Shown here piece after piece: positions 27,426 through 41,302 of a stretch of DNA of 64,000 nt (position 1 is its first letter; every line of letters starts with the position of its first letter). The notes beneath the pieces are model-generated. The model worked only from the letters and a program-made list of their open reading frames with translations, did no database searches and was not told the origin of the DNA. The position numbers were made by a program, and so were the translations under genes. The stretch comes from Polaribacter sp. GTDB taxonomy: Bacteria > Bacteroidota > Bacteroidia > Flavobacteriales > Flavobacteriaceae. The stretch is from the NCBI RefSeq assembly GCF_965660385.1, contig NZ_CBFHZT010000009.1:8646-72645 (forward strand), read 5' to 3'.

Positions 27426-28171
27426 TGTCTTATAAAGTATATTACATCAACTTAGACAAAAGCACAGAGAGACGTGCCTTTATGGAAAATCAGTTTAAAC
27501 AACTGAATATTCCCATTACAAGAATTGCTGCCATTTATGGAAAAGCGTTAGATGCTGACATTCTAAAAAAAGAAAAGAAAAAACACAACCTCTTAGCCCA
27601 TTTTCCTTATCCAAATGATGGTGAAATTGGTATTTGTTTAACACATTTTAAGTTGTGGAAGTTTTTATCAAAACAACCGGAAGAATTTTCCATAATTTTA
27701 GAAGATGATGCACTTGTTCAAGAAGATTTCTTTAAAGATTTAGAACAACTCTTATCACAAATTACTACTAATGATTTTTTAGACATTTCTGGGAAAAAAG
27801 GGTTTTATCCAATAGAAAAAAATGAGCTTCTTACAAAATTTTTAATGCCTCCTGTTTTAATGATTGGGCAAATTATAGGTAAAAATGCAACAAAAAAGTT
27901 ATCTAATAATTTAAGTGATTACTATGCCCCTATTGATGTAATGAAGCAGGATGTTTATAAGCATAGCGTACCTTTATATTCTACCAACAAAAAATATGTG
28001 GTTAGTGTTGATAAGAAAATGGGAGGAAGTACGATACAACAAAACAATATGATTGTTTGGAAAAAAGTGATTCGTGAAATTCTACGTCCTGTTTGGCAAT
28101 TTTTTAGTTTAATAACCTACAAATTACAAAGATGTATTAGAAACTACCTGTTTTATAAATCTTTAAGCTAA
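27422..28171 (+). CDS. GT25 glycosyltransferase (Lex2B/LgtB-like)
   Basis: YYINLDKSTERR, GEIGICLTH and ILEDD motifs. 4-bp overlap with the GT11 gene. Confidence 0.85.
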   Translation: MMSYKVYYINLDKSTERRAFMENQFKQLNIPITRIAAIYGKALDADILKKEKKKHNLLAHFPYPNDGEIGICLTHFKLWKFLSKQPEEFSIILEDDALVQEDFFKDLEQLLSQITTNDFLDISGKKGFYPIEKNELLTKFLMPPVLMIGQIIGKNATKKLSNNLSDYYAPIDVMKQDVYKHSVPLYSTNKKYVVSVDKKMGGSTIQQNNMIVWKKVIREILRPVWQFFSLITYKLQRCIRNYLFYKSLS

Positions 28172-28210
28172 TTATAGTTTTGTACCATTACCTTAAATCA
28201 AAAAAGCCAA

Positions 28211-28316
28211 CAAACAAGTTTAGCCCAGATTGAAATGGCATCCTTTTTCTTTTTGAGATTCCGGCCTTTGCAGGAATCTTAAAAGAAAAAGATATAATGG
28301 AAAGCTGGAAATAGCT
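28211..28316. repeat. Structured intergenic repeat, copy 2 of 3
   Basis: CAAACAAGTTTAGCCCAGATTG ... GAAAGCTGGAAATAGCT with an internal ~19-bp hairpin. Confidence 0.85.
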
Positions 28317-28359
28317 ACAAAAAACCAATACAGGTGCTGAAACTAGTTCAGCATAAACA

Positions 28360-30039
28360 CTACTTGTTCATTTTAATAGAATCTATTCGTTTTTGCAGTC
28401 GTTTTATTTCTTCTAACTTTTTTTGTTGGTTAGATAAGAGCTGAATGGAATCTAAAATTGCTCGGTTTTGCTCTAAAATGGTTTTCTCTTTTTCGAAATA
28501 AATATTTTGGTTTTCACTGGTTCTCCAGGCTTCATTAAGTTGCAAATATACTTGTTCATTCCATTTGCTGGGGTGTTTGGCATCAATCCAAATTACATCT
28601 CTATATTCTGCATCAATTAGCGCCAAATCTGGAGTTGCAGCACCATCAAATTGTGCATTTTCTTTTTTTATCGCAGAAATGGTACTGAGAAAAAACATAC
28701 GTTTACGACCTGCAATTTCCTTAATATAAGGTCTAAATTCTACAGGTTTGTTTACAGACCAATCGTATTCTTTACGAGATTCAATGACCTTTAATGGCAT
28801 TGCAGAAACGCCTGCATAACCTTCTTTTTTAGCAGCATGATCGTAAAAATACAACGCATTTGTACCATCTGCAGGAATAAAAACGCTGAAGGTTAAACTG
28901 GTTCTTTCTGCACCCACAGGTTCTAAACCAAACCAATGGTATAAACCACTGTAAGCACCAGTTTTGGTATCAGAAAAATCGAAATCGGTTACATAAGGTT
29001 GTTGGTTTTGATCGTCTGGTAATTGTGGAATTTTAACTGCAGTTTTCATATTCCAAGGCAAAGGATCTGAAAATCCACCTAAAAATTTTAAACTTTCAGC
29101 CTGTAATTTAGATACTTTTTCTGATAAGGTATTTTGTTTGGTTAAATAAGCATAGTTTTGCATTGCTGAAGGCGCAATGTACTTTCCAATACCAATGGTT
29201 ATTCTTTCAAAATAATTATGATCTCCATTATCAATAACCATTACACCACCAAAAGTTGGATATGGAAAAAAGAAACCTTTCCATTTTATCAAGCTCACCA
29301 CTTGTACCCAAGCTCCTTTATCGTTTTTCATATAATAGGTATCGCTTGGTTCGTAGTTGAACAACTGCCAAAGGTTAAAACGCTGTACAACTGCATTGTA
29401 AGTGTTTCTGCTAAATTTTAAAGATTCTCCGATTGTGAATTTAACCGGAATTCTATTTTCATTAGAAAACCTTGGAAAAGGTGTGGTACTAGAAACCGAA
29501 AAAACTTCTTCAGTATCGTCTTTAATGCCTTGCCAAGTATATTTTTCGGTAGGTTGAATAGCCATTGTCCATTGATTGTTATTATCTACTCTTACCAAGT
29601 GTGGTAAGGAAACATCTTTGGTTTCGCCTACAGATTCATTTGCCATAGAAAAGATATTTCTTAAAGGCTGAATTCTTTCGTTTTGGGTTAAAGGCAACTC
29701 TACAATTTCTATGCGATTTAAGTCGTTGAACACATTATAAGTCTGCATATAATTGTACATTTTGGAATGGAATCCAATATAATATATCAATCCGAAAAAA
29801 AGCGCTAAAAGACCTAATACACCAATGCGTTTGCCTGTACTCGCTAATTTCCTGAATTTTCGTAGGCCAAAAAACAAGACCATAAAGCACAATAAAATAA
29901 TGAAAATATATTTTCTGAAAAATAATAATGCTGGTTGATAATCATCTCTTAAAAAGAAGAGTAACCCAATTATCAATAATGATAAAAGAATGATGTTTCT
30001 TTTTTGTTTTGCTCCTTTTTGCCAATATGTTTTGATCAT
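28360..30039 (-). CDS. Hypothetical membrane protein (about 3 N-terminal TMs plus a large soluble domain)
   Basis: 559-aa ORF with hydrophobic N-terminal helices and a C-terminal coiled coil. No family recognised. Confidence 0.75.
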   Translation of the reverse strand: MIKTYWQKGAKQKRNIILLSLLIIGLLFFLRDDYQPALLFFRKYIFIILLCFMVLFFGLRKFRKLASTGKRIGVLGLLALFFGLIYYIGFHSKMYNYMQTYNVFNDLNRIEIVELPLTQNERIQPLRNIFSMANESVGETKDVSLPHLVRVDNNNQWTMAIQPTEKYTWQGIKDDTEEVFSVSSTTPFPRFSNENRIPVKFTIGESLKFSRNTYNAVVQRFNLWQLFNYEPSDTYYMKNDKGAWVQVVSLIKWKGFFFPYPTFGGVMVIDNGDHNYFERITIGIGKYIAPSAMQNYAYLTKQNTLSEKVSKLQAESLKFLGGFSDPLPWNMKTAVKIPQLPDDQNQQPYVTDFDFSDTKTGAYSGLYHWFGLEPVGAERTSLTFSVFIPADGTNALYFYDHAAKKEGYAGVSAMPLKVIESRKEYDWSVNKPVEFRPYIKEIAGRKRMFFLSTISAIKKENAQFDGAATPDLALIDAEYRDVIWIDAKHPSKWNEQVYLQLNEAWRTSENQNIYFEKEKTILEQNRAILDSIQLLSNQQKKLEEIKRLQKRIDSIKMNK

Positions 30040-30062
30040 TTTTCTTTTAATGTTTGGTTTAA

Positions 30063-30139
30063 GATGTTTGAGGTTTGAGGTTTGAGGTTTGATGCTTGAT
30101 GCTTGATGTTTGATGTTTGATGTTTGATGTTTGATGTTT
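30063..30139. repeat. Tandem heptamer array, 11 units of GAKGYTT
   Basis: Counted GATGTTT, 3x GAGGTTT, 2x GATGCTT, 5x GATGTTT. An inverted degenerate partner lies at 30203-30230. Confidence 0.95.
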
Positions 30140-30229
30140 ATAACTCAAAACAATTTATTTTAAATTTTAACTATTTATTGTTGGAATCCTAAACTAACAT
30201 GTTACATCCAGCATCAAGCTTCCAACTCC

Positions 30230-30751
30230 CTACAACAATCCTTTATCTTTTAAACGCTCTCTTGCACTTTTTTCATTTGGTTTAGGTGCTTCTTTTTTCT
30301 CCTCAATTTCTTCTATTTCTTTAACATCTGTAGTTTGTAAATCTTCAATAAAATCTTTTCCCTTTTCAATGACATCTTGAAATTTGTCTTCTAAAGATTC
30401 TGATTTTTGATCAATAACTGTGGATGACTTAAAAATGAATCCTGCAACATAAGTACCTATTAATGTTCCAAAAATCATAGAAGTAAATAAAGAAATGGTT
30501 GCCAAATCTATAGGAATTAAAAAACGAGTAATTATAATTGCGATTAAAAAAAATGCTGTAATAAATACCAAACGTAATAAAAAAGATTGTTGATAAACAA
30601 AGCCTTTTTTATCTGTTGCTTCCATTTGCAATTCTTTGGAATTCATCAATTTATTAAAAAAACGGTATACTTTATTTCCTTGAGATTCTCTCCAGAAAAT
30701 AACTGCTCCTAATAAAATGGAGGCTATAAATATGATAAGTTCTAGTGTCAT
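30230..30751 (-). CDS. Hypothetical 3-TM membrane protein with charged C-terminal tail
   Basis: 173-aa ORF, three hydrophobic helices, tail ending KSARERLKDKGLL. Confidence 0.75.
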   Translation of the reverse strand: MTLELIIFIASILLGAVIFWRESQGNKVYRFFNKLMNSKELQMEATDKKGFVYQQSFLLRLVFITAFFLIAIIITRFLIPIDLATISLFTSMIFGTLIGTYVAGFIFKSSTVIDQKSESLEDKFQDVIEKGKDFIEDLQTTDVKEIEEIEEKKEAPKPNEKSARERLKDKGLL

Positions 30752-30873
30752 AATTGGTAAATTGATGTACTCTATAAAATTAGTCTATTTTTATTAGAAT
30801 TTGTTACGTAACATATCAAACTAATTTATTTCGTAAATAAACTTACAAAATTTTGAAACTCTGCAGGAGTATG

Positions 30874-32388
30874 TTAATTCTTAAAAATTGAACTAACACT
30901 CTTAAAAAAGCCACGGATTCGAGAAGAAACTGAACCTACAAAACCTTTATCTTTCTCTTTCACATACTTTTCTCTATGCGTTTCTTTGTAATTATAAGTC
31001 CCTAAAATTTTAGCAACGCGTTCTTTATAAAAAGCTCCTTTGGTTTTATCGATTTGATAAATAAAATTCGCAAAACCATCTATTTCTGCCAAAACATTTG
31101 AGCCTCCATTCCAAGATTTGCCTTGAATTCCGTCTTTTTCAATATGATGTAATAATGCTCTAAAACGTTTTAATGATTTCTTATTTACATTCGGTTTCTC
31201 ATTTACAACTACTCCTGTAACCTCTTGTCTTTGATGAGGTTTCATGATACGAAGTTTATCAGGATGCAACACAAAATTTTCATCTTCTACAATTTTCTTA
31301 GAATATTTTAAAATTGCAGGAATTTTTTTAACCTGTTCTTTATGCGAAGAAAACGTAAGATCATCTACATATCTAGAATAATTGAATCCGTATTTTTTGG
31401 CTAATCCATCTAAACGAAAATCCATTTTTTTACACAATATATTGGTAATTGCAGGACTACAAGGAGATCCTTGAGGTAAAAATCGTTCGCCCCTTTGTGC
31501 AAAATAATTTTCGCCTAATAATGATATGTCTAAAATTTTAGGTTCAGAACACAATAACGCAAAAATAACAGCCACTTGTTCTGAATATCCAAAGGACTTA
31601 AATACGCCTTTTATTCTTTTGTACGTTATGGTTGGAAAAAAGTTTTTTAAATCTTGATTGATAACCACAGCTTTGTTTACATGAGGTTCTGCATTCGTTA
31701 AAATAGATTTTCCAATTACACAACCATTGGCTTTTGGATGCGTTTCAACTTTATTTAAAATTGCTTCTAAAATAAAATGTTGTGCCTTTTTTAATCTTGG
31801 CATTGGCGCAGAAATCAATCGAAAACCACCCGTTTTTTTAGCGACTTTAAAACGTTTAAAATGATTTATTTTAGCATTTTTTCTTGAAAAAGTTAAGAAT
31901 CTAAGTTCGCTTAAGGTAATTTTCATTGCATCTGCGACATCTTTGGCAGATTCTAAAATGGGTAAATTTAAAGATTTAAGCCTGTTTTTATCAGTCTTTT
32001 TATCATTTAATTGATGCGAAAAACCCTCACCCAAATAAACAATTTCTTGTTCTTTTTGCAAGCGCCATTTTTCAGCTTTTTCTTTTTTAAGTAAAGCTCT
32101 TTTTTCTTTGGTTTCTTTTTGTTTTTCTTTGGATAAGCGCTTGCGTTCTTTGTGTTTATTGACAATAAAAGCATCAATATCTTCAATGCTTTTTTCCTTT
32201 TTTAAAAGAGTATTGAGCTCGTTAGAAAGTGTACGTTCTTCTTTAAAAAAAGTATTTACTTCTTCAAAATCAAGGTTTTCATCTGTCCAAAAACCCAAAC
32301 GTCTCATTTCTGAGAGGATGTATTCCTGTTTAGACGATCCTTTAATTTTATCGTAAATTTCTTGTCTTCTCTCTGTTGAATTGCTCAT
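30874..32388 (-). CDS. Retron-type reverse transcriptase with N-terminal charged extension
   Basis: KKTGGFRLISAP, retron region X NAEPH, DLKNFFP, LPQGSPCSP, catalytic YVDD, region Y EVTG. ATG at 32388 preferred (504 aa). Confidence 0.95.
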   Translation of the reverse strand: MSNSTERRQEIYDKIKGSSKQEYILSEMRRLGFWTDENLDFEEVNTFFKEERTLSNELNTLLKKEKSIEDIDAFIVNKHKERKRLSKEKQKETKEKRALLKKEKAEKWRLQKEQEIVYLGEGFSHQLNDKKTDKNRLKSLNLPILESAKDVADAMKITLSELRFLTFSRKNAKINHFKRFKVAKKTGGFRLISAPMPRLKKAQHFILEAILNKVETHPKANGCVIGKSILTNAEPHVNKAVVINQDLKNFFPTITYKRIKGVFKSFGYSEQVAVIFALLCSEPKILDISLLGENYFAQRGERFLPQGSPCSPAITNILCKKMDFRLDGLAKKYGFNYSRYVDDLTFSSHKEQVKKIPAILKYSKKIVEDENFVLHPDKLRIMKPHQRQEVTGVVVNEKPNVNKKSLKRFRALLHHIEKDGIQGKSWNGGSNVLAEIDGFANFIYQIDKTKGAFYKERVAKILGTYNYKETHREKYVKEKDKGFVGSVSSRIRGFFKSVSSIFKN

Positions 32389-32399
32389 AAAACAAAAAA

Positions 32400-32628
32400 G
32401 GCAACAATAAGATGTATTTTTTTTCCCTTCGTACTCTCTAATGACTGAATTGAACAACTCCAGTGAAATACGTACTGGTGTATTATTTCACTTCGCAGAA
32501 GTTTAACCGGAAATAGTACACCAGTACGTATTTCACAAGTTAAGTTCGAGTCAGTGACGCGTTCGTTGTCTAGTTACAAGATTGGCGATCCACCAATCGA
32601 AATGCAAGGTTTTTATCTTATTGTTACC
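32400..32628 (-). ncRNA. Retron msr-msd ncRNA (predicted)
   Basis: Terminal inverted repeats 32615-32628 / 32400-32413 (14 bp, one G-U), 8-bp stem-loop at 32580-32598, and a long hairpin with a perfect 20-bp core (32463-32482 / 32517-32536). Ends 11 nt before the RT ATG. Confidence 0.85.
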
Positions 32629-32646
32629 AAGTTTTAAATATATTAA

Positions 32647-34275
32647 TTAATTTTTATCAAAAGCCAATCTTGTTGCTAAAATATGCGCACAAGGCCCTTT
32701 TGTCATTTTATTTTTATAATAGTCATTACATGTGCATTTTCCATCTACAATTTTTAAATCGCTGTTGATGACAACACTTGAATTGTATTTATTTTTTACC
32801 AAAGCTGACAACTCAGCCTTTTGGTTTAATGAATTCGATTTTAAATTGGAAACTGCACCATTTTCCATCAATTGATAAGCTTCTTTATCAGTTTCGCTAG
32901 AAAAACGTAACGCTTCTATATCAATTCCTTCTCTTTTTAATTCTCGAATTCGATACACATTATTCTTTAAATCGTAAATTACTTTCCCTGCTTGCGTAAA
33001 AGTTACCAAAGATTGCTGCACAGTTTGCTCATCAATCTTTAAATTTTGAGCAATTTTTGATGCTGTATTCAACCAATCTTTTCGCAACTCTAAATACACA
33101 GATTGCATTGTTGTTGCTGGTACTTTTGTTCTTGGCATTAGCAAATCTAATTGCGTTGATTGTGCCCAATCATTGGCTGTCCAACCAGATAAACCTAAAG
33201 TAAAATACATTTCATTAGTTAAATGAGCTGTGTAAAATGATGGCAATCCAGAGCCTAATAAATGAACTGTGAATTTAGTGGTTATTGGCAACAAACGTTC
33301 TAATAACGTGATTCTTCTTCTTCCCCAAACTCTAATTTCTTGTGCTTTATTTCCTTGATAAATAGACTGTAAACATTCAATTTCTATATTCCAAGGTTCA
33401 AAAACGGCGATAATCGGTTTGCCTGGTTTTAAAATATATTTTATGGCTCTTGGACCCGTTTTTTCTTTATTTCGTTTTAAAACAGATATAAAATTCGCAA
33501 TATCTATAGGATGCAAATCAAAGGAAACTTTATCACTTGTCATTGCTGTAGAAACTTGTAAAAACCCACGAACCCAACTATCAGGTAAATCAATTTTTAC
33601 TTCTCTGTAGGTTTCTTCTCCTGTTGTCTTTACATCAAATCCTTTAGGATTTATTTTAAATTCGGTGTTTTTATAGGTTCTTATTTTTTGAAATTCGTCA
33701 TATAATTTCTTAGAATAATCAATATTTGTGGTGCCGCATTTAAATTCGTCAACATTATTAAAAACCTCATAACCACAAGATAATTTGCCGTAAACGGATT
33801 CATCCTTACTAAAACATTCAAAAAACACTTGATCTGGATGCACTGTAATTACTGGATCTAACACAAACCAAGCTGCATAATCTCTTTTGTATAAATATTG
33901 AAAATAGGCTCTTTGCGCTTTATAATAAGGAGCTGTAATTTTTTCTCTTTTAGAACGAACAATTTTTAACTTGCTTTGTAAACGATTAATTTCGTCTTTT
34001 AACTTTGATAATTCTCCTGTAGCTTCTGCGACCCAAACATCTTCCTGACTTTTTAGCCAAGTTAAATAGGCTGTATTGTCTTTTGGCTGAAAATTAAAAT
34101 CGGCAGTAACAACATTATGCAGTGCTGAAATGGCTTCACGAAATGGAATTTTATTGTCTAAATTCCCCACAAAATACGTAGGTTCTCGTAAAACATCTGG
34201 TGCAAAATTAACGCCAGTTGCAGACGAACTGTTTTCTACTTTACTATTTCCACTATATTTAAAATTAAACTTCAT
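32647..34275 (-). CDS. SWIM zinc-finger domain protein (retron-associated)
   Basis: C-terminal CTC...CAH (CxC-xn-CxH) SWIM motif, DPVITVHPD and PDSWVRGFLQV conserved-looking blocks. 11-bp overlap with the upstream gene. Confidence 0.85.
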   Translation of the reverse strand: MKFNFKYSGNSKVENSSSATGVNFAPDVLREPTYFVGNLDNKIPFREAISALHNVVTADFNFQPKDNTAYLTWLKSQEDVWVAEATGELSKLKDEINRLQSKLKIVRSKREKITAPYYKAQRAYFQYLYKRDYAAWFVLDPVITVHPDQVFFECFSKDESVYGKLSCGYEVFNNVDEFKCGTTNIDYSKKLYDEFQKIRTYKNTEFKINPKGFDVKTTGEETYREVKIDLPDSWVRGFLQVSTAMTSDKVSFDLHPIDIANFISVLKRNKEKTGPRAIKYILKPGKPIIAVFEPWNIEIECLQSIYQGNKAQEIRVWGRRRITLLERLLPITTKFTVHLLGSGLPSFYTAHLTNEMYFTLGLSGWTANDWAQSTQLDLLMPRTKVPATTMQSVYLELRKDWLNTASKIAQNLKIDEQTVQQSLVTFTQAGKVIYDLKNNVYRIRELKREGIDIEALRFSSETDKEAYQLMENGAVSNLKSNSLNQKAELSALVKNKYNSSVVINSDLKIVDGKCTCNDYYKNKMTKGPCAHILATRLAFDKN

Positions 34276-37200
34276 CAGCTACATCTTTAATTAATAGTGG
34301 AATTTCTAAATTCGGGAATTGTGTTGCAATGGTTAGTAAAATATCTATATTTTTACTTCTATCAATTATGGTTTTTGTGTCTAAAATTGAATGAATTAAA
34401 CCAATTGTCATTTTTGCAACAGCTTTATTTTTAACAGATTCCTGCTCTAAAAACTGGTATACTCTTGTTTTTGTGGCTCTATTCGTATTGATAGTAAACA
34501 AACTTGTTCTAAAATAATTTTCTAATTTTAAAATTACATTTTGATTATCTTTTGCAAAAGAATTCAAATAATTGGTTACAAAAAATTGCATTTCTTTGCT
34601 TGGATGTTCTTGTAGTTTTTCTAACAAAGGCAATCCTTTTTCATTAGAAAAATGTTTTGTCATCATTTTAATCGCAAATTGCTGAACTTCTATTTTTACG
34701 TTATCCGAAATGTATAACAATACATCTGCTGTCCATTTTTCTGGCTGTATGTGTTTATCAAAATAAACACAAGCCCAATCAATTACATCTTGCCAATTTG
34801 CATTAAAAATAGACAAAGCTACTTCTAATTCATAATTAATTTTGGTTGTATTCTTCTCAAAATAATCTTGTACTTTTTTACGAATCGCAAAAATGGCACT
34901 ATCTGCTAATTGGATTACTTTTTCAATAGGCATGGTAGCCAATTGAATTCTTTTCTCAAATAAAGGCAATCCTAAATTCTGCGCAAACTCATAATCTGAA
35001 AGAACAAAAGCAAATATTTGTTCTTCGGATAAAAATGCCAAATCGTCTTTAAAATAAGTAGTTAACAGCTGATAACTGTTTTCGTGCAAACCTTCGTAAA
35101 CTTCTGATTCTGTAAGTACTTGCAAAAGCTTATCTAATAAACTTTGTTTGAAATTACGATCTAACTTTACCAACCTTTCTATGGTTGGCTGAATGGCTTC
35201 GCGAACTTCTTTGTATTCTGAAAAACAGAAACCAACAATTTCTTGTTTATTTTCTAATAAAAAAGAATCTGGAAAATGCGATAAAATTTCAATTCCTGCT
35301 TTGCGCAACAACTCATCATCTGCATTAATATACGCTTCAAAAGAGTCTTTAAATAATTTGTAAGCAGGAGTTGTATTGTGTTTTGCTAAATTGATCGCAA
35401 ACAATTTATTGCTTACTAAAGTTGAATTTGATAATTCTGTGATTTTATTTGCTGATGTTCCTTTTAGCAATTCACCAAACTTCGTATTTCCAATTAAATT
35501 AGCGATTGCAATTAAAAACTCTTTGGTAAAATGTGTGTTTTTTTGAAATAATGGCCCTAATTGATGAATATCAATTTTATGATTGTAGATAATTTCTTCT
35601 TTATACAATTCACTTAAAAAAGCAATAACCTCAACTTGATTGGTAAACAACAAACTCGAAATAAACTCTTGGTTATTGAATAAATTTATTTCGTATTTCT
35701 TTAACCAATAAAAACCTAATTCTAAGGCTTTTTCGTTTCCAGAATTTAAAAGTCCGATTACGATATCTTGTTCTGGTTGTGAGTTTTCGTATTTTGTTTT
35801 TAGAATATCAACAATTAAGGCGATTACTTTTGGGTGATAATGATTCGCTAATTTTGAGATTATTTCAGTTGATAAATCTTCTAAAAACTGCGGATTTTCA
35901 TCGATAATTTTTAATGCAAAATCTATGGCAACATCACTTTTAGCATTGGCCAAAATTTGTAAAACTGCTTTAGAACTAGTATTCCAAATTGTAGATAAAG
36001 CTTCTTCTCTTTTACTAACTTTTTTATCATCTATAACATAAAACCACTTGTCTTTTTGTTGCGTAAATCTTGTAGATGCACCATATAAAACATACATTAA
36101 AGCTGTATAATTGGCATATTTAGGAAAACATCTTTGTTCATTATTATAGGTTTGAGTTTCCCAATTGTAATTATAATTATACACAATTTCTTCTTTTACA
36201 TCATCTTCTTTATCATTTAAAGAAAGTAGCATTTGAGTTGCATATTTTACATATGTTTCTGTATCATTTATACTTAAATCATACATTTTTTTGTAAATAG
36301 AATGATTAAAATACGACTTCGTTTTTCTAGAAAATGCAACTGAAGGATTTGGTTTTGCCATTTCTTTTAGCACAGAAACCCAATTTCCTTTTTCATCATA
36401 AAAGTAATCCGAAGTAAATCCTGGTTTATTTAATGCCAAACGTTTGGAAAGTATCGCAAAAAACGCAACATCATTGGTGATTTGCGCTGTTCTAAAAATA
36501 TATCTAATCGATTTAAAAGTATTCGCTTTAAAAGGAATTCTTTCAATTATTTCGAGAATTTTTCCACGAAGCTGTTCATCATCAAAAGCAAAAATATACG
36601 CATAATATAAAAGTGATGCTTTAGTAGCATCAGCATTTAAAAACTGAATGGCTAGCGATGTAAAAGTATCTTTAGTAATGTAGTTTTCTACCTCTTTTTT
36701 AATTTCTTTTTTATCAGTTTCATTTCCGAATTTTAAGAGAAATGCACAGGCTGCTCTACCACCAATTGTACTAAATTTAGCAGTTTTAAAAACTTCTAAA
36801 ATCTTGTTTTTGTATTCTGTAATATTAAAAGAAGCCAAAACTGTAATGGCATTATATTGCTCAAATTGGTCTTTAGAGTCAATAAATTCAGCAATTAAAG
36901 CTGAAGCCTGAATCATTTTTAAATTGCCTGCTCTTAAAATAATTCTTGAGACTTTCCAGTTCCTGGCATAAGTGTTTTTTACAGCTTGTTCTAAATATTT
37001 TAGGATTGTTTTTTCTCGAACTGTATTTATATGAACTTTTGGTGTAGCTTTTTTTTCTAGTTCTAAATTTTCAGAATATCCCTTCTTTTCTTTGCTTTCA
37101 ATTAATTTATCGAAGATTTTTACAGCTTCTTCATACCCAACAGGAAAAACTGTTTTTGTGCCTTCTCTTAAATTGGCACCTCTTCTTCCATATCTAAAAT

Positions 37201-37300
37201 TTACGACAAATAAATCTTGATTTTCACAAATATCAACTTCATAAACCTTATCAGATTTGCCTTCAAAAAAATAGAGTGTTTTTTGTTTTACTAGTTTCAA
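34265..37300 (-). CDS. WGR-domain protein with HEAT/ARM-like helical repeats (retron-associated)
   Basis: N-terminal SDKVYEV...VNFRYGRRG...EAVKIFDKLIESKEKKGY WGR-type domain, then about 900 aa of helical repeat-like sequence. TTG start. Confidence 0.82.
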   Translation of the reverse strand: MKLVKQKTLYFFEGKSDKVYEVDICENQDLFVVNFRYGRRGANLREGTKTVFPVGYEEAVKIFDKLIESKEKKGYSENLELEKKATPKVHINTVREKTILKYLEQAVKNTYARNWKVSRIILRAGNLKMIQASALIAEFIDSKDQFEQYNAITVLASFNITEYKNKILEVFKTAKFSTIGGRAACAFLLKFGNETDKKEIKKEVENYITKDTFTSLAIQFLNADATKASLLYYAYIFAFDDEQLRGKILEIIERIPFKANTFKSIRYIFRTAQITNDVAFFAILSKRLALNKPGFTSDYFYDEKGNWVSVLKEMAKPNPSVAFSRKTKSYFNHSIYKKMYDLSINDTETYVKYATQMLLSLNDKEDDVKEEIVYNYNYNWETQTYNNEQRCFPKYANYTALMYVLYGASTRFTQQKDKWFYVIDDKKVSKREEALSTIWNTSSKAVLQILANAKSDVAIDFALKIIDENPQFLEDLSTEIISKLANHYHPKVIALIVDILKTKYENSQPEQDIVIGLLNSGNEKALELGFYWLKKYEINLFNNQEFISSLLFTNQVEVIAFLSELYKEEIIYNHKIDIHQLGPLFQKNTHFTKEFLIAIANLIGNTKFGELLKGTSANKITELSNSTLVSNKLFAINLAKHNTTPAYKLFKDSFEAYINADDELLRKAGIEILSHFPDSFLLENKQEIVGFCFSEYKEVREAIQPTIERLVKLDRNFKQSLLDKLLQVLTESEVYEGLHENSYQLLTTYFKDDLAFLSEEQIFAFVLSDYEFAQNLGLPLFEKRIQLATMPIEKVIQLADSAIFAIRKKVQDYFEKNTTKINYELEVALSIFNANWQDVIDWACVYFDKHIQPEKWTADVLLYISDNVKIEVQQFAIKMMTKHFSNEKGLPLLEKLQEHPSKEMQFFVTNYLNSFAKDNQNVILKLENYFRTSLFTINTNRATKTRVYQFLEQESVKNKAVAKMTIGLIHSILDTKTIIDRSKNIDILLTIATQFPNLEIPLLIKDVADEV

Positions 37301-37355
37301 TTTGCTAATTTTTGTTTTAAAAATAAGGAATGTTGATTACAATTCAGTGATTTTC

Positions 37356-38591
37356 TTAAAAATTATTTCTTATCGTTTCAACAACCCAATCTTTTTTAGA
37401 ATCTTGCCAAGTTTTGAAATTTTCGTAAAAATCTTCTTTATCATACCAATACCAAAACAGCACATCTTTTGGAGCAATATTTATGAGTAATTTCCAGATT
37501 AAATCTTGATGATGTGGTCGTAAAGAAGAATGTGGTTTGTGCAAGGCAAAATAAAATTCTTGATCTACAAAATCCTTGATTTTTGTATCGCTATTTGTTG
37601 TTTTTTTCTCTAAATAACGTTCAACACTCATTACTTTTTTACGATTATTGATATCGAGTTTGTTCAAGTAACTTTTGAAAAGCATTTTATCTTCTAAAAT
37701 TTCATTTACAGGATGTTGTGTTTCCTGAAGCGCTTCTCCGAAAATAAATTTTTTAATGCGTTCATATCGTTTTGTAGTAACTTCTTTTGCCAAATCACAC
37801 TCAATAATAAAATGATCTTTTAATTGCATTATCAACTCAGGTTGTAAAATATGAAACATTAAAACATCATAAGCAGTGTCATCAATCGCTTCTTGATACG
37901 CTTCCCAGTTTTCGAAAACTAAAATTGGTGTGATAAAATTTCTTAATAAATATATTCCTCCAAATGCTTTGGTATAAAAAGAATCTGAGGTATAAATAAT
38001 AGAATCTAAAGTGATGTTTCTATTTCTTAAATCGCCATATTTTTTTGCTGATGTTAATAATTGTTGATGAATGTTTTCATCGATAAAATTATTACCTCTT
38101 TTAAAAATTTCTATCAGTTTTAATTGTTCTTCCTTTGCTTTTTTTAAATTATCTATCAAATGAAACCTGATTGTAACCTCTTCATATTTTAAAACTTCTA
38201 ACGGTTCGTAAAACACATCAATATTCTGATCAAAATCGATACAAATGGCTGAATCTCTAGTAATATCTTGAATTTTTTGTTGATGCGTTCTAAATACCAA
38301 CTTCATTAATTCTGTATCAAAAGAATGAAATGGATTGTAAATTGGTAAGCCTTTTTGCAAAGGTGTAATTAAAATTGCATGCGGATTTGCTTCACCATTG
38401 TTTAAATAGAATATTTCGTTTTTTTCTTCAGCAATTTCTGGACTCCAACCAATTCCATCAATAGAAAATGAGGTCAATTTGGTTTTAGTAAAACCCAATT
38501 TCACCAAACATTTATTGTAACGTTCAACTAATTTTCCACTGATGGGAATTAGTTCGCTTCTGTATAAATTTGCTTGTTTTAGTTTGTTCAT
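37356..38591 (-). CDS. Conserved hypothetical protein (DUF6638-like)
   Basis: LVERYNKCL, IDGIGWSPEIA and FYTKAFGG blocks recalled as DUF6638. Family assignment unverified. Confidence 0.6.
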   Translation of the reverse strand: MNKLKQANLYRSELIPISGKLVERYNKCLVKLGFTKTKLTSFSIDGIGWSPEIAEEKNEIFYLNNGEANPHAILITPLQKGLPIYNPFHSFDTELMKLVFRTHQQKIQDITRDSAICIDFDQNIDVFYEPLEVLKYEEVTIRFHLIDNLKKAKEEQLKLIEIFKRGNNFIDENIHQQLLTSAKKYGDLRNRNITLDSIIYTSDSFYTKAFGGIYLLRNFITPILVFENWEAYQEAIDDTAYDVLMFHILQPELIMQLKDHFIIECDLAKEVTTKRYERIKKFIFGEALQETQHPVNEILEDKMLFKSYLNKLDINNRKKVMSVERYLEKKTTNSDTKIKDFVDQEFYFALHKPHSSLRPHHQDLIWKLLINIAPKDVLFWYWYDKEDFYENFKTWQDSKKDWVVETIRNNF

Positions 38592-38725
38592 AAGGCCTAT
38601 CCTAAATCCATTTCAAAAGAAAGGACTTTTATGCTTTTGATTTAATTATTTGAATGATTCTTAATGAAACATTTATTGCCGTATTTAATTTTCTGAGTCT
38701 TTTTATTTCAATTCAAAATAATCTA

Positions 38726-38758
38726 AGACCTCACAGGTTTTAAAAACCTGTAAGGTCT
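38726..38758. repeat. REP-like palindrome / hairpin downstream of the NUDIX gene
   Basis: AGACCTCACAGGTTTT-A-AAAACCTGTAAGGTCT: 16-bp arms with one mismatch, 2 nt after the stop codon. Confidence 0.75.
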
Positions 38759-38760
38759 AC

Positions 38761-39354
38761 TTAATTTATTAACTTATTTATCTGCAAGTACTGTAGCAAC
38801 ATAATTGTTCTTGCATCTACAATTTCTTCATTTTCAATCATTTTTAGAGCATCAGAAAAATTAGTTTCTAAAACTTCAATTTCTTCTCCTTCTTCAATTA
38901 ATCCTTCACCTTTTTCCTCTTTATCATTCTCAGAATATTCTGCGACATAAATATGCACTTGCTCCCACATTAAACCAGGTGATAAAAACACTTTAGCAAC
39001 TTTTTTTAAGTTTTTAATATGATACCCAACTTCTTCTTTCGTTTCACGAATTGCGGTTTCTTCTGCTGTTTCATTTTTATCAATTGCACCACCCACCACT
39101 TCAACACAAAAACCATCAGCAACACCAGCAACATACATTGGTGTTCGAAATTGCTTTGAAAGCACTACTTTTTTAGTTGATGGATTATATAATAGCACTC
39201 CAACTCCGTCATTTTTGCCAAAAACCTCGTGCGTTAAACGTGCGGTTTTTCCATTTTTAAAAGTAAAATCGAAACTAACTTGTTCTAATTTTGCCCAAAT
39301 GTTGGAAATTACTTTTGAGCTAACATTTTGTATTTTATTTTTAATTTGCATCAT
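38761..39354 (-). CDS. NUDIX hydrolase (NudK / ADP-ribose pyrophosphatase-like)
   Basis: Nudix box GAIDKNETAEETAIRETKEEVG, KQFR and IVDARTI. Start at 39354 or 39351 overlaps the ATPase stop. Confidence 0.88.
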   Translation of the reverse strand: MMQIKNKIQNVSSKVISNIWAKLEQVSFDFTFKNGKTARLTHEVFGKNDGVGVLLYNPSTKKVVLSKQFRTPMYVAGVADGFCVEVVGGAIDKNETAEETAIRETKEEVGYHIKNLKKVAKVFLSPGLMWEQVHIYVAEYSENDKEEKGEGLIEEGEEIEVLETNFSDALKMIENEEIVDARTIMLLQYLQINKLIN

Positions 39355-41302
39355 TAAAATTCTTTCTTGCTTCCAAATCAATATTTAATTGATTCACTCT
39401 TGCATCCACTTTTCGTTTAAAATCGGTATCTGCAATCGTGGCAACATTGTCTAAATACCTTACTACTTCTTGTCTTCTAATTTCAGAAAAATCCAATCCT
39501 CTCATATTGCTTTTCATCAATTCTTGCAACATATTCAACTTTGTTTTGTAATCTTTTTTGAAGTAGATTTCTGGATTTTCAAACCAATCTTTTTCCAAAT
39601 CAAAATCTGTTAATCGCAATGAAATTGCAGATTGAATGTTTCTAACATCTCTGGAAGAAAAGAATGGAAAAATCTTTTGAATCTCTTTGTATAAACTAGC
39701 AAAAAACAAATGTTCGTTGGTTTTATGTTTTTGAGTGGCTTTGTCATACGCTTGTAACACCCTTTCTTCTGATGGTTTTTCTACGGAATTTAAAACGTCT
39801 CCCATATTTTTTACAAAACCTTGATCTTTTAAGAAATGATAATTCTGCGGATTTTGCATATTCACAAAATCTGGAATGGTTTTTTCAAACTTTTTCCACC
39901 ATATATAATCTTGATCTAAAAAGTCATGTGCGGTTCTTGCTCCATCAATTTTAAATCTACCTTGCACTCTAGAAATTACAGCTTTATCGAGCATTTCTGG
40001 CAAGTTTGTAAATAAACCCACTGAAGAATTTCCGTAATTTACTGCGTAAGCACCTTCTGTATAACGTAAGAAAACACCAATCACTTCTTTAACTCCAGCA
40101 GAAACCCCTTGTGCAGTTCTTTCTTGTAAGTTATTTTCTGCATCATCAATGGGCGCAAAAATAATTTTTGTTGGGTCTTGCATTGGTTTCATCCATGCTA
40201 CCATTTTTTCTGCTGATCCTCCTTGAAAAGTAGAAATCAACGTATCTGGCATTGGGTGAAATAAAAACGGAATGTCTAAATGATCACAATGTTCTTTTAA
40301 ACGAGTAGCAATGGCTGCAATTAACATCGATTTTCCTGTTCCTGGAATTCCATATCCCATAAAAACAGGCATAAATCCACCTAATTCTTGAAACGGATTT
40401 TTCTGCGCCTCAAAATCGTAACTCAACATTCTTTCTGTTAATCTACGTGCAAAATGTTTGGCATCTTTATTTCCAACAATTTGTTCGAACTGAATTTTAT
40501 TGAAGGCTACACTTTTTGCGTTTCCTTGAAAAACATTCTCCCAACCTGAAATTGAAAAATCGGAATTTTCTAATTTATAAGTTCTATCTGTAATGGTTTC
40601 TATGTATTCTAAACTGCTTTTGCGTAACTGAATTTCATCAATTAAAGCCTCAAAATAGACTACTGTAAAATCTACTACATCTTTGTCTGTTTTAATGATT
40701 TCTGGGTGATCTAAATATTTATCATAATAAAACAAAGCACAAGCAATTCCTTTTAAAGGTGATAAAAAAGATACTTCTGGAATGCCAGCAAATTTTTGTT
40801 TCATCACAGACAAATCATTACTAACAAACGGTTTTAAATCGTGTAGAATTTTATAGGATAATGCAAATAATTGAAAAGCTGTCGCAGTTTGTAATTTACT
40901 CTCAAATTCTCTTTTTTGGGATGAATTTAACGCTGATTTTCGCTCATTTAAAGATGATAAACCTGAGGCATCATAATAAGCATCTTTAATCCAAATACCC
41001 AAAGTTAAGCCTTCTTGAACCGCGAATAAGGTTTGATTTAAATGTACAGGAATTGCAATGGAATTTGGTAATAATCGCTTTTTTAAGGCTAGAATAGTTT
41101 TGGAAACTGAAGTAACTTCAATATTGCTTCCATTATTTGCTCTTGACAAATAGAATAAAATTGATTCATCTTTTGCATCTTTTTCCCTGCTTTTTGCTTT
41201 ATTACCTTGCTCCCATTGAACAGATTTAATATAATCTGTTGCTTCATCACGAAGTACATCTAATTCGTTTAGTTTTATTGGAAAAGTTGAAGTGTGTTCC
41301 AT
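39341..41302 (-). CDS. AAA+ ATPase (classic AAA clade-like) with long N-terminal domain
   Basis: Walker A GIPGTGKS, Walker B variant APIDDAE, SRH-like TNLPEMLDKAVISR. Confidence 0.85.
   Translation of the reverse strand: MEHTSTFPIKLNELDVLRDEATDYIKSVQWEQGNKAKSREKDAKDESILFYLSRANNGSNIEVTSVSKTILALKKRLLPNSIAIPVHLNQTLFAVQEGLTLGIWIKDAYYDASGLSSLNERKSALNSSQKREFESKLQTATAFQLFALSYKILHDLKPFVSNDLSVMKQKFAGIPEVSFLSPLKGIACALFYYDKYLDHPEIIKTDKDVVDFTVVYFEALIDEIQLRKSSLEYIETITDRTYKLENSDFSISGWENVFQGNAKSVAFNKIQFEQIVGNKDAKHFARRLTERMLSYDFEAQKNPFQELGGFMPVFMGYGIPGTGKSMLIAAIATRLKEHCDHLDIPFLFHPMPDTLISTFQGGSAEKMVAWMKPMQDPTKIIFAPIDDAENNLQERTAQGVSAGVKEVIGVFLRYTEGAYAVNYGNSSVGLFTNLPEMLDKAVISRVQGRFKIDGARTAHDFLDQDYIWWKKFEKTIPDFVNMQNPQNYHFLKDQGFVKNMGDVLNSVEKPSEERVLQAYDKATQKHKTNEHLFFASLYKEIQKIFPFFSSRDVRNIQSAISLRLTDFDLEKDWFENPEIYFKKDYKTKLNMLQELMKSNMRGLDFSEIRRQEVVRYLDNVATIADTDFKRKVDARVNQLNIDLEARKNFNDAN

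Follow-up and report, generated by a model that had tools for sequence, protein, structure and literature searches.

At which nucleotide would reverse transcription be primed, and at which would copying begin, in the non-coding RNA (ncRNA) that precedes a reverse transcriptase (RT) gene in a 64,000-nucleotide stretch of Polaribacter DNA (the whole of which is here called the window)? An earlier note on this DNA had proposed G32605 as the branching guanosine of a retron and 32431 as the start of its msDNA. The analysis presented here arrives at the same two positions: 32400-32628 on the minus strand is probably the msr-msd of a type XIII retron in which G32605 would prime, C32431 would be copied first, giving a branched msDNA of ~125-142 nt, a reading built on sequence comparison and on analogy with characterized retrons. 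Type XIII is among the most widespread of the retron types and includes the first msDNAs found (Mx162). As a compact, AT-rich flavobacterial member with clear covariation, a predicted priming G and a predicted template start, it would lend itself well to studies of how type XIII makes long msDNA and of the roles of the SWIM and WGR/HEAT partners.

The genes at the locus, all on the minus strand, lie in the order WGR/HEAT, SWIM, ncRNA and RT, and were identified by PADLOC as a complete type XIII retron; their coordinates and those of the ncRNA elements are collected in Table 1. The WGR/HEAT gene (34265..37300) also matches the PADLOC profile HEAT-ARM_XIII (1.3e-27). Read in translation, the C-terminal motif of the SWIM protein is CTCNDYYKNKMTKGPCAH, that is CTC-x12-CAH, an exact CxCx12CxH finger as defined for the type XIII SWIM protein (PMC7736814). 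The RT_XIII match spans residues 2-479 of the RT, and the 504 aa translation contains NAEPH, YVDD and VTG, the hallmarks of retron RTs being an NAxxH motif and a VTG triplet (PMC7736814), next to the catalytic YxDD box. The best PDB matches of the RT were all retron RTs, the Ec86 RT being the nearest solved structure (5e-42), and the PDB search returned no type XIII entry and none for the SWIM protein. A 527-aa open reading frame from TTG 32457 was considered as the start of the RT and rejected, because it overlaps the ncRNA and because the homologues and the Nannocystis RT begin at the ATG; the true start is ATG 32388.

Type XIII, as described by Mestre et al. (2020; PMC7736814), combines a clade 10 RT with an extended N-terminus, a SWIM protein and a WGR-like protein with HEAT/ARM repeats (cluster 216), and includes the myxobacterial retrons Mx162, Mx65, Sa163 and Ne144. 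In the window the RT has an extended N-terminus, its partner is a SWIM protein and the preceding gene encodes WGR and HEAT/ARM regions; the general features of a retron, namely the RT motifs, an ncRNA closed by a1/a2 with an msr hairpin and a long msd, and a conserved G, were found as well. Judged from sequence, the locus 30874-37300 is a bona fide type XIII retron. An Rfam scan of 28000-38000 returned no retron family, giving just chance microRNA-like matches on the long hairpin and an unrelated Flavo-1 RNA, which lies downstream of the retron cluster (RF01705; 28218-28315) and exceeds its gathering score with 73.7 bits. No report of msDNA from a flavobacterium, or of any function for type XIII retrons, was found in the literature, and the retron census paper mentions neither type XIII nor flavobacteria.

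Table 1. Features of the retron locus, numbered from the first letter of the window.
Feature	Position	Strand	Basis or remark
WGR + HEAT/ARM-repeat protein, 1011 aa	34265..37300	-	PADLOC WGR_XIII 5.5e-293; Pfam WGR 1.2e-6
SWIM zinc-finger protein, 542 aa	32647..34275	-	PADLOC SWIM_XIII 1.2e-222
Retron ncRNA (msr-msd), a1 through a2	32400..32628	-	RNA fold, consensus fold, covariance model
a1, outer terminal stem 5' arm, GGUAACAAUAAGAU	32615..32628	-	Pairs with 32400-32413
Unpaired loop AAAAA	32610-32614	-	Between a1 and inner helix
Inner helix 5' arm CCUU	32606..32609	-	98.5% paired in the model-fitted alignment of 84 ncRNAs; two of four pairs covary
Predicted branching (priming) guanosine	32605	-	Invariant (84/84) in UUGC; directly 3' of inner helix
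msr hairpin, 8 bp, GAUUGGUG-GAU-CGCCAAUC	32580..32598	-	99.4% paired; 5/8 pairs changed on both sides
msr-msd linker, 24 nt	32556..32579	-	3' part ACGCGUC (32562-32556) strongly conserved
msd long stem-loop, 112 nt	32444..32555	-	Helices 90-99% paired; nearly all pairs compensated
Predicted first templated stretch, RNA CAUUAGAGAGUAC, ending at C32431	32431..32443	-	Ec86 geometry
Unpaired G facing predicted branching G	32430	-	G in 83/84
Inner helix 3' arm AAGG	32426..32429	-	Pairs with CCUU 32609-32606
A-rich loop, 12 nt	32414-32425	-	Between AAGG and a2
a2, outer terminal stem 3' arm, AUCUUAUUGUUGCC	32400..32413	-	Followed by U-run and RT start codon
Retron RT, 504 aa, N-terminal extension ~140 aa	30874..32388	-	PADLOC RT_XIII 5.3e-177; Pfam RVT_1 7.6e-21

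The intergenic stretch 32389-32646 sits between the minus-strand SWIM and RT genes. When folded as RNA, a 241-nt stretch reached -81.5 kcal/mol (z = -7.7), a value that none of 200 shuffled sequences equalled, and the outer stem and the CCUU/AAGG helix are both part of its minimum-energy fold. The terminal stem is split, consisting of a 14-bp outer helix (32628-32615 with 32413-32400, one pair being G-U), an asymmetric A-rich internal loop (5 nt/12 nt) and a 4-bp inner helix.

Sequences on either side of the ncRNA were also inspected for signals. Directly after a2, UUUUUUGUUUU occupies 32389-32399 and is followed by the RT start codon, and the closed stem with its U-run just before the RT gene therefore has the appearance of an intrinsic terminator, and most Bacteroidota loci have kept the U-run. 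Upstream of a1 (32630-32660, minus strand) a TAtaTTTA/G box is conserved at a distance of 6-9 nt; in flavobacterial loci this box and the SWIM gene's end overlap. The box resembles the Bacteroidetes -7 element, and no promoter is claimed because the nearest TTTG lies just 15 nt upstream of it. The Bacteroidetes promoter pattern TTTG-N17-23-TAnnTTTR had no match upstream of a1, and it was not enriched in the window (17 matches vs 25 expected).

A 4-bp helix in a single sequence is no proof of a structure, an objection that is answered by conservation and covariation in 84 ncRNAs. Two RT-based scans gave 86 related loci from Bacteroidota and Beta- and Gammaproteobacteria, nearly all of them with a conserved region ahead of the RT. 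Twenty-six sequences, whose consensus fold contained 28 compensated pairs, were used to build a covariance model (R1) into which the inner helix was written. Model R1 scored 277 bits on the window ncRNA and recovered 84 full-length homologues upstream of RT genes. In the resulting alignment 95.3% of the cells were paired, against 69.5% in shuffles and 36-46% when the partners were slid, covariation was 0.653 against 0.176 in shuffles, and 61 of the 73 pairs showed compensated changes, pair counts which lean towards the tested structure as the alignment was fitted to a model already containing the inner helix. Independent anchoring of the ncRNAs by nhmmer and regular expressions, which also carries some built-in bias, gave the same picture.

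Both parts of the terminal stem have changed in evolution without loss of pairing. All 14 pairs of a1/a2 had changed on both sides across the 84 sequences. The pair types of the inner helix, outermost first and counted in the same model-fitted alignment, were CG54/UA14/AU6/GC1, CG77/UA4, UA80 and UA83, the two beside the G being invariably U-A, and the helix occurred in five forms: CCUU/AAGG, UCUU/AAGA, ACUU/AAGU, CUUU/AAAG and UUUU/AAAA. Five distinct forms cannot, to judge from these homologues, be explained by the choice of alignment. The base 5' of the inner helix (-5) was A in 49 of 58 distinct contexts and was mostly unpaired with its counterpart (16/58 paired), and the distance from the priming G to the facing G was 174-179 nt in 78 of 88 copies.

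Around the inner helix the minus-strand RNA reads CCUU (32609-32606), G32605 and C32604 on the 5' side and C32431, G32430 and AAGG (32429-32426) on the 3' side, a direct reading that places each nucleotide where it had been proposed (plus strand: 32425-32431, ccctt-c-g; 32604-32609, g-c-aagg). Right after the helix G32605 faces G32430 and C32604 faces C32431. The UUGC core was present in 84/84 ncRNAs, the facing G in 83/84 and the following A in 84/84, and G32605 was the sole G between a1 and the msr hairpin to be invariant among the 84 homologues. The entropy of the primer and template-start core was 0.00 bits among close relatives, while the surrounding loops drift, and these core nucleotides show the strongest conservation in the whole ncRNA. 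By established retron biochemistry, the RT proceeds along the 3' arm in the direction of the RNA's 5' end, so that the primer must be on the 5' arm. Conservation, position and the location of the primer on the 5' arm thus make G32605 the natural candidate primer and C32431 the natural first template base, and the proposal of G32605 as the putative priming guanosine is backed by comparison with about 90 related copies.

In the retrons described by Simon et al. (2019; PMC6868368) the priming G is found where the terminal stem ends on its inner side, or directly beyond, and lies in TAGC, and reverse transcription of Ec86 starts at a cytosine. The canonical (T)AGC context does not occur here, the window and 84/84 relatives having UUGC. 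Validated retron priming contexts are TAGC, CAGC, GAGC, CAGA or ACGC, and the base before the G, which is U at G32605, is A (or C in Vc81) in all 15 validated msr sequences (PMC6868368). The AGC context is a tendency and no strict rule, because Vc81 already departs from it.

The UUGC around G32605, not being the canonical AGC, nevertheless speaks in favour of priming by another guanosine, for which the first base of the msr hairpin (G32598), a G of a1 (32617) and G32577 were considered. Two of them, G32598 and G32577 (columns 69 and 91), share the invariance of G32605, and in some retrons the priming G lies inside a stem (PMC6868368). Against this, G32598 is paired in a covarying hairpin, any helix that could place the template beside it lies 7 nt away, and the a1 G (column 24) varies (GC61/UA5/AU2/CG1/GU1). 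Priming from any of these three guanosines is regarded as highly improbable.

The inner helix beside G32605 is just 4 bp long and is followed by a large internal loop before a1/a2. In an alternative proposed by RNAalifold, the partners of G32605, C32604 and A32603 would be U32576, G32577 and U32578, at the base of the msr hairpin; the first of these pairs was G-C/G-U in 77/83, C-G was invariant and A-U was found in 61, with 3 compensated cells and 19 unpaired. Such pairing of 32576-32578 with 32603-32605 (UGU/UGC past the msr hairpin) would give a three-way junction at the priming site. It was rejected as the main structure because its support was weak and it showed little covariation.

The resemblance to Ec86 (CCCUUA-G-C ... 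C-G-UAAGGG) on which the original proposal drew holds at the sequence level. The Ec86 msr-msd matched 48 E. coli genomes at 100%, beside a gene annotated 'retron St85 family effector protein', and reads ...CCCTTA-G-CGAG ... CTGAC-G-TAAGGG... Retron-Eco1 (Ec86, type II-A) and the window ncRNA therefore share a 5' arm of stem-G-C facing a 3' arm of C-G-stem, with cytosine as the first template base, in the window by prediction. Ec86 differs in the base before the G, which is A (TAGC), in its continuous a1/a2 stem of 12 bp and in its 86-nt msDNA, and also in its nucleoside deoxyribosyltransferase-like effector and an RT without the N-terminal extension.

Closer relatives were sought in myxobacterial genomes, which were reached via MglA loci and then searched for RT_XIII. 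Nannocystis radixulma has the SWIM - ncRNA - RT order of the window, and its RT is 44% identical to the window RT over 468 aa, from residue 1 and with the N-terminal extension included. Its ncRNA was matched by model R1 (102 bits, E 2e-22) and resembles that of the window in its msr hairpin (GGCGGCG-GAU-CGCCG), its split terminal stem, a G facing G and a C facing C, and a G-to-G distance of 177 nt (175 nt in the window). The core of the N. radixulma ncRNA is CCUA-G-CA ... UUC-G-UAGC, so that the G aligned with G32605 belongs to a canonical UAGC; the -1/+1 pair there is A-U where the window has U-A (UUGC/CGAA), a compensated flip. The invariant U before G32605, together with the compensated A in Nannocystis, suggests that the RT may need the pairing at this position and not the identity of the base. 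YUUGC was read in six further copies from Myxococcota. An experimentally validated type XIII retron with an 'Ne144-like' ncRNA, Retron-Nex2 (Ne144), comes from the same genus (Nannocystis exedens), and the N. radixulma ncRNA was assumed to be its orthologue. By elimination from the exceptions given in Simon et al. (PMC6868368), Ne144 has TAGC.

Retron-Mxa1 (Mx162) and Retron-Sau1 (Sa163) belong with the window RT to the clade with N-terminal extensions and have SWIM and HEAT/WGR partners (PMC7736814), and they also have, as is predicted for the window, a long msDNA with a long hairpin and a priming G directly after the terminal stem. They are unlike the window in their CAGC motif, their continuous ~26-34 bp terminal stem and their msDNA of 162-163 nt. 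In Mx162-like Corallococcus ncRNA the corresponding G lies in CAGC next to a continuous stem and is faced by a G, as G32605 is faced by G32430 in the window. Model R1 gave no match in five Mx162-like Corallococcus loci, and the window ncRNA is therefore not directly alignable to Mx162. Published models of type XIII ncRNAs cover Firmicutes, Ne144 and Mx162/Mx65 (Mestre et al., 2020; PMC7736814). Our own model R1 links the window ncRNA to one from Nannocystis and not to the Mx162-like ncRNAs.

The Corallococcus sequences also bear on the position of the first templated base. If G32605 is the branch point, copying could begin at a base other than C32431, for example with dC at 32430, or at 32432; the start has been assigned solely by analogy with Ec86, and the Mx162-like Corallococcus ncRNA appears, in an ambiguous repeat, to have G and not C beside the facing G, in which case type XIII would have no universal first base. 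The column of C32431 nevertheless holds C in 80/84 (A in 4/84) and that of G32430 holds G in 83/84, in the same C-G order as Ec86, where C is the documented start (PMC6868368). A start shifted in this way is considered improbable, and the earlier placing of the msDNA start at 32431, made by analogy with Ec86, fits the C found there.

With G32605 as primer and C32431 as first template base, the following course of synthesis would be expected. The inner helix would serve as the primer-template duplex for the RT, as in Ec86 and other retrons, and the 2'-OH of G32605 would accept the first deoxynucleotide, dG, opposite C32431. The 5' end of the msDNA would accordingly be a dG at 32431 (plus strand GTACTCTCTAATG), reading GTACTCTCT..., and copying of the msd would proceed to the left along the RNA (to the right along the plus strand), crossing a 13-nt leader and then the 112-nt hairpin. 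Copying would stop in the conserved linker, at about 32556 to 32572. Alignment columns A75-G85 of the linker are invariant and its 3' part, ACGCGUC, is by analogy the likely zone of termination and of RNA-DNA overlap, such an overlap being of 8 bases in Mx162 (PMC6868368).

Such synthesis would yield a branched msDNA, roughly 125-142 nt long, whose DNA is the plus strand beginning GTACTCTCTAATGACTG, which is what the plus strand reads from 32431, as the note had stated. A stop just outside the hairpin, as the overlap in Mx162 suggests, would give DNA of about 125-134 nt, and a stop homologous to that of the 144-nt product in the 177-nt Nannocystis frame would give about 142 nt; an msDNA running at least to about 32553, as predicted, would be consistent with both estimates. 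Folded as DNA, plus strand 32431-32565 forms a long hairpin (-33.9 kcal/mol, z = -7.9), and the computed fold agrees with the earlier expectation that the msDNA folds in this way.

A conserved retron ncRNA need not yield a stable branched msDNA: the retron could be silent, the DNA could be cleaved off, as in Ec83, or the RNA alone could act. Both cleavage after synthesis and a retron in which no priming G is apparent (Se72) have been described (PMC6868368), and type XIII is without a demonstrated function. The catalytic and retron-specific motifs of the RT are intact, however, the primer and template-start nucleotides are the most conserved of all, and the type XIII members Mx162, Mx65, Sa163 and Ne144 do make msDNA (PMC7736814). 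We consider a locus without stable msDNA to be quite improbable. Like a shifted first base and another priming guanosine, it is possible and is less well supported than priming from G32605 with copying from C32431.

The part of the ncRNA that varies most is the middle of the msd stem. In the Flavobacteriaceae orthologues the mid-stem 32470-32484/32515-32529 had 0.63-0.64 bits, against 0.05-0.12 in the remaining stem, and every change in it was compensated; the base of the msd stem and the apical element AUUUCC...GAAAU were fixed. In several loci two to four tandem ncRNA copies precede a single RT (L067:68-1221; L072:2036-2882; L082:2038-2883; L058:127-913), and tandem copies were found in L050, L025, L079 and L080 as well. 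The copies have a common scaffold (UUGC core, msr hairpin, and base and apex of the msd). They differ from one another in a1/a2, which is compensated in each, and in the mid-stem segment of the msd. We know of no description of such tandem ncRNA arrays.

One reading of these arrays, which we put forward tentatively and consider rather unlikely, is that UUGC is the priming context of a whole ncRNA subfamily, with >90 copies in Bacteroidota, Proteobacteria and Myxococcota, and that the subfamily's mid-stem is a dedicated, rapidly diversifying specificity cassette. If this were true, one RT would serve a small set of msDNA 'sensors' in each tandem array, and UUGC would be a priming context used by no validated retron. 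For the window, the prediction of a priming site is itself ordinary annotation inside a known system, and what is new is modest: an invariant UUGC context and a split terminal stem in a known retron type.

Some further observations concern individual loci. In Aquimarina sp. 2201CG5-10 (L014:3001-4503) the RT frame contains an internal stop codon and the ncRNA is intact. Loci labelled as Hyphomicrobiales, Methyloligellaceae and Alphaproteobacteria MAGs (L025, L052 and L060) carry the retron with Bacteroidota-like sequence, which could be due to horizontal transfer or to a binning error. In the window, 37356-41302, upstream of the retron and on the same strand, encodes a DUF6638 protein and an AAA+ ATPase with a weak IetA-like match.
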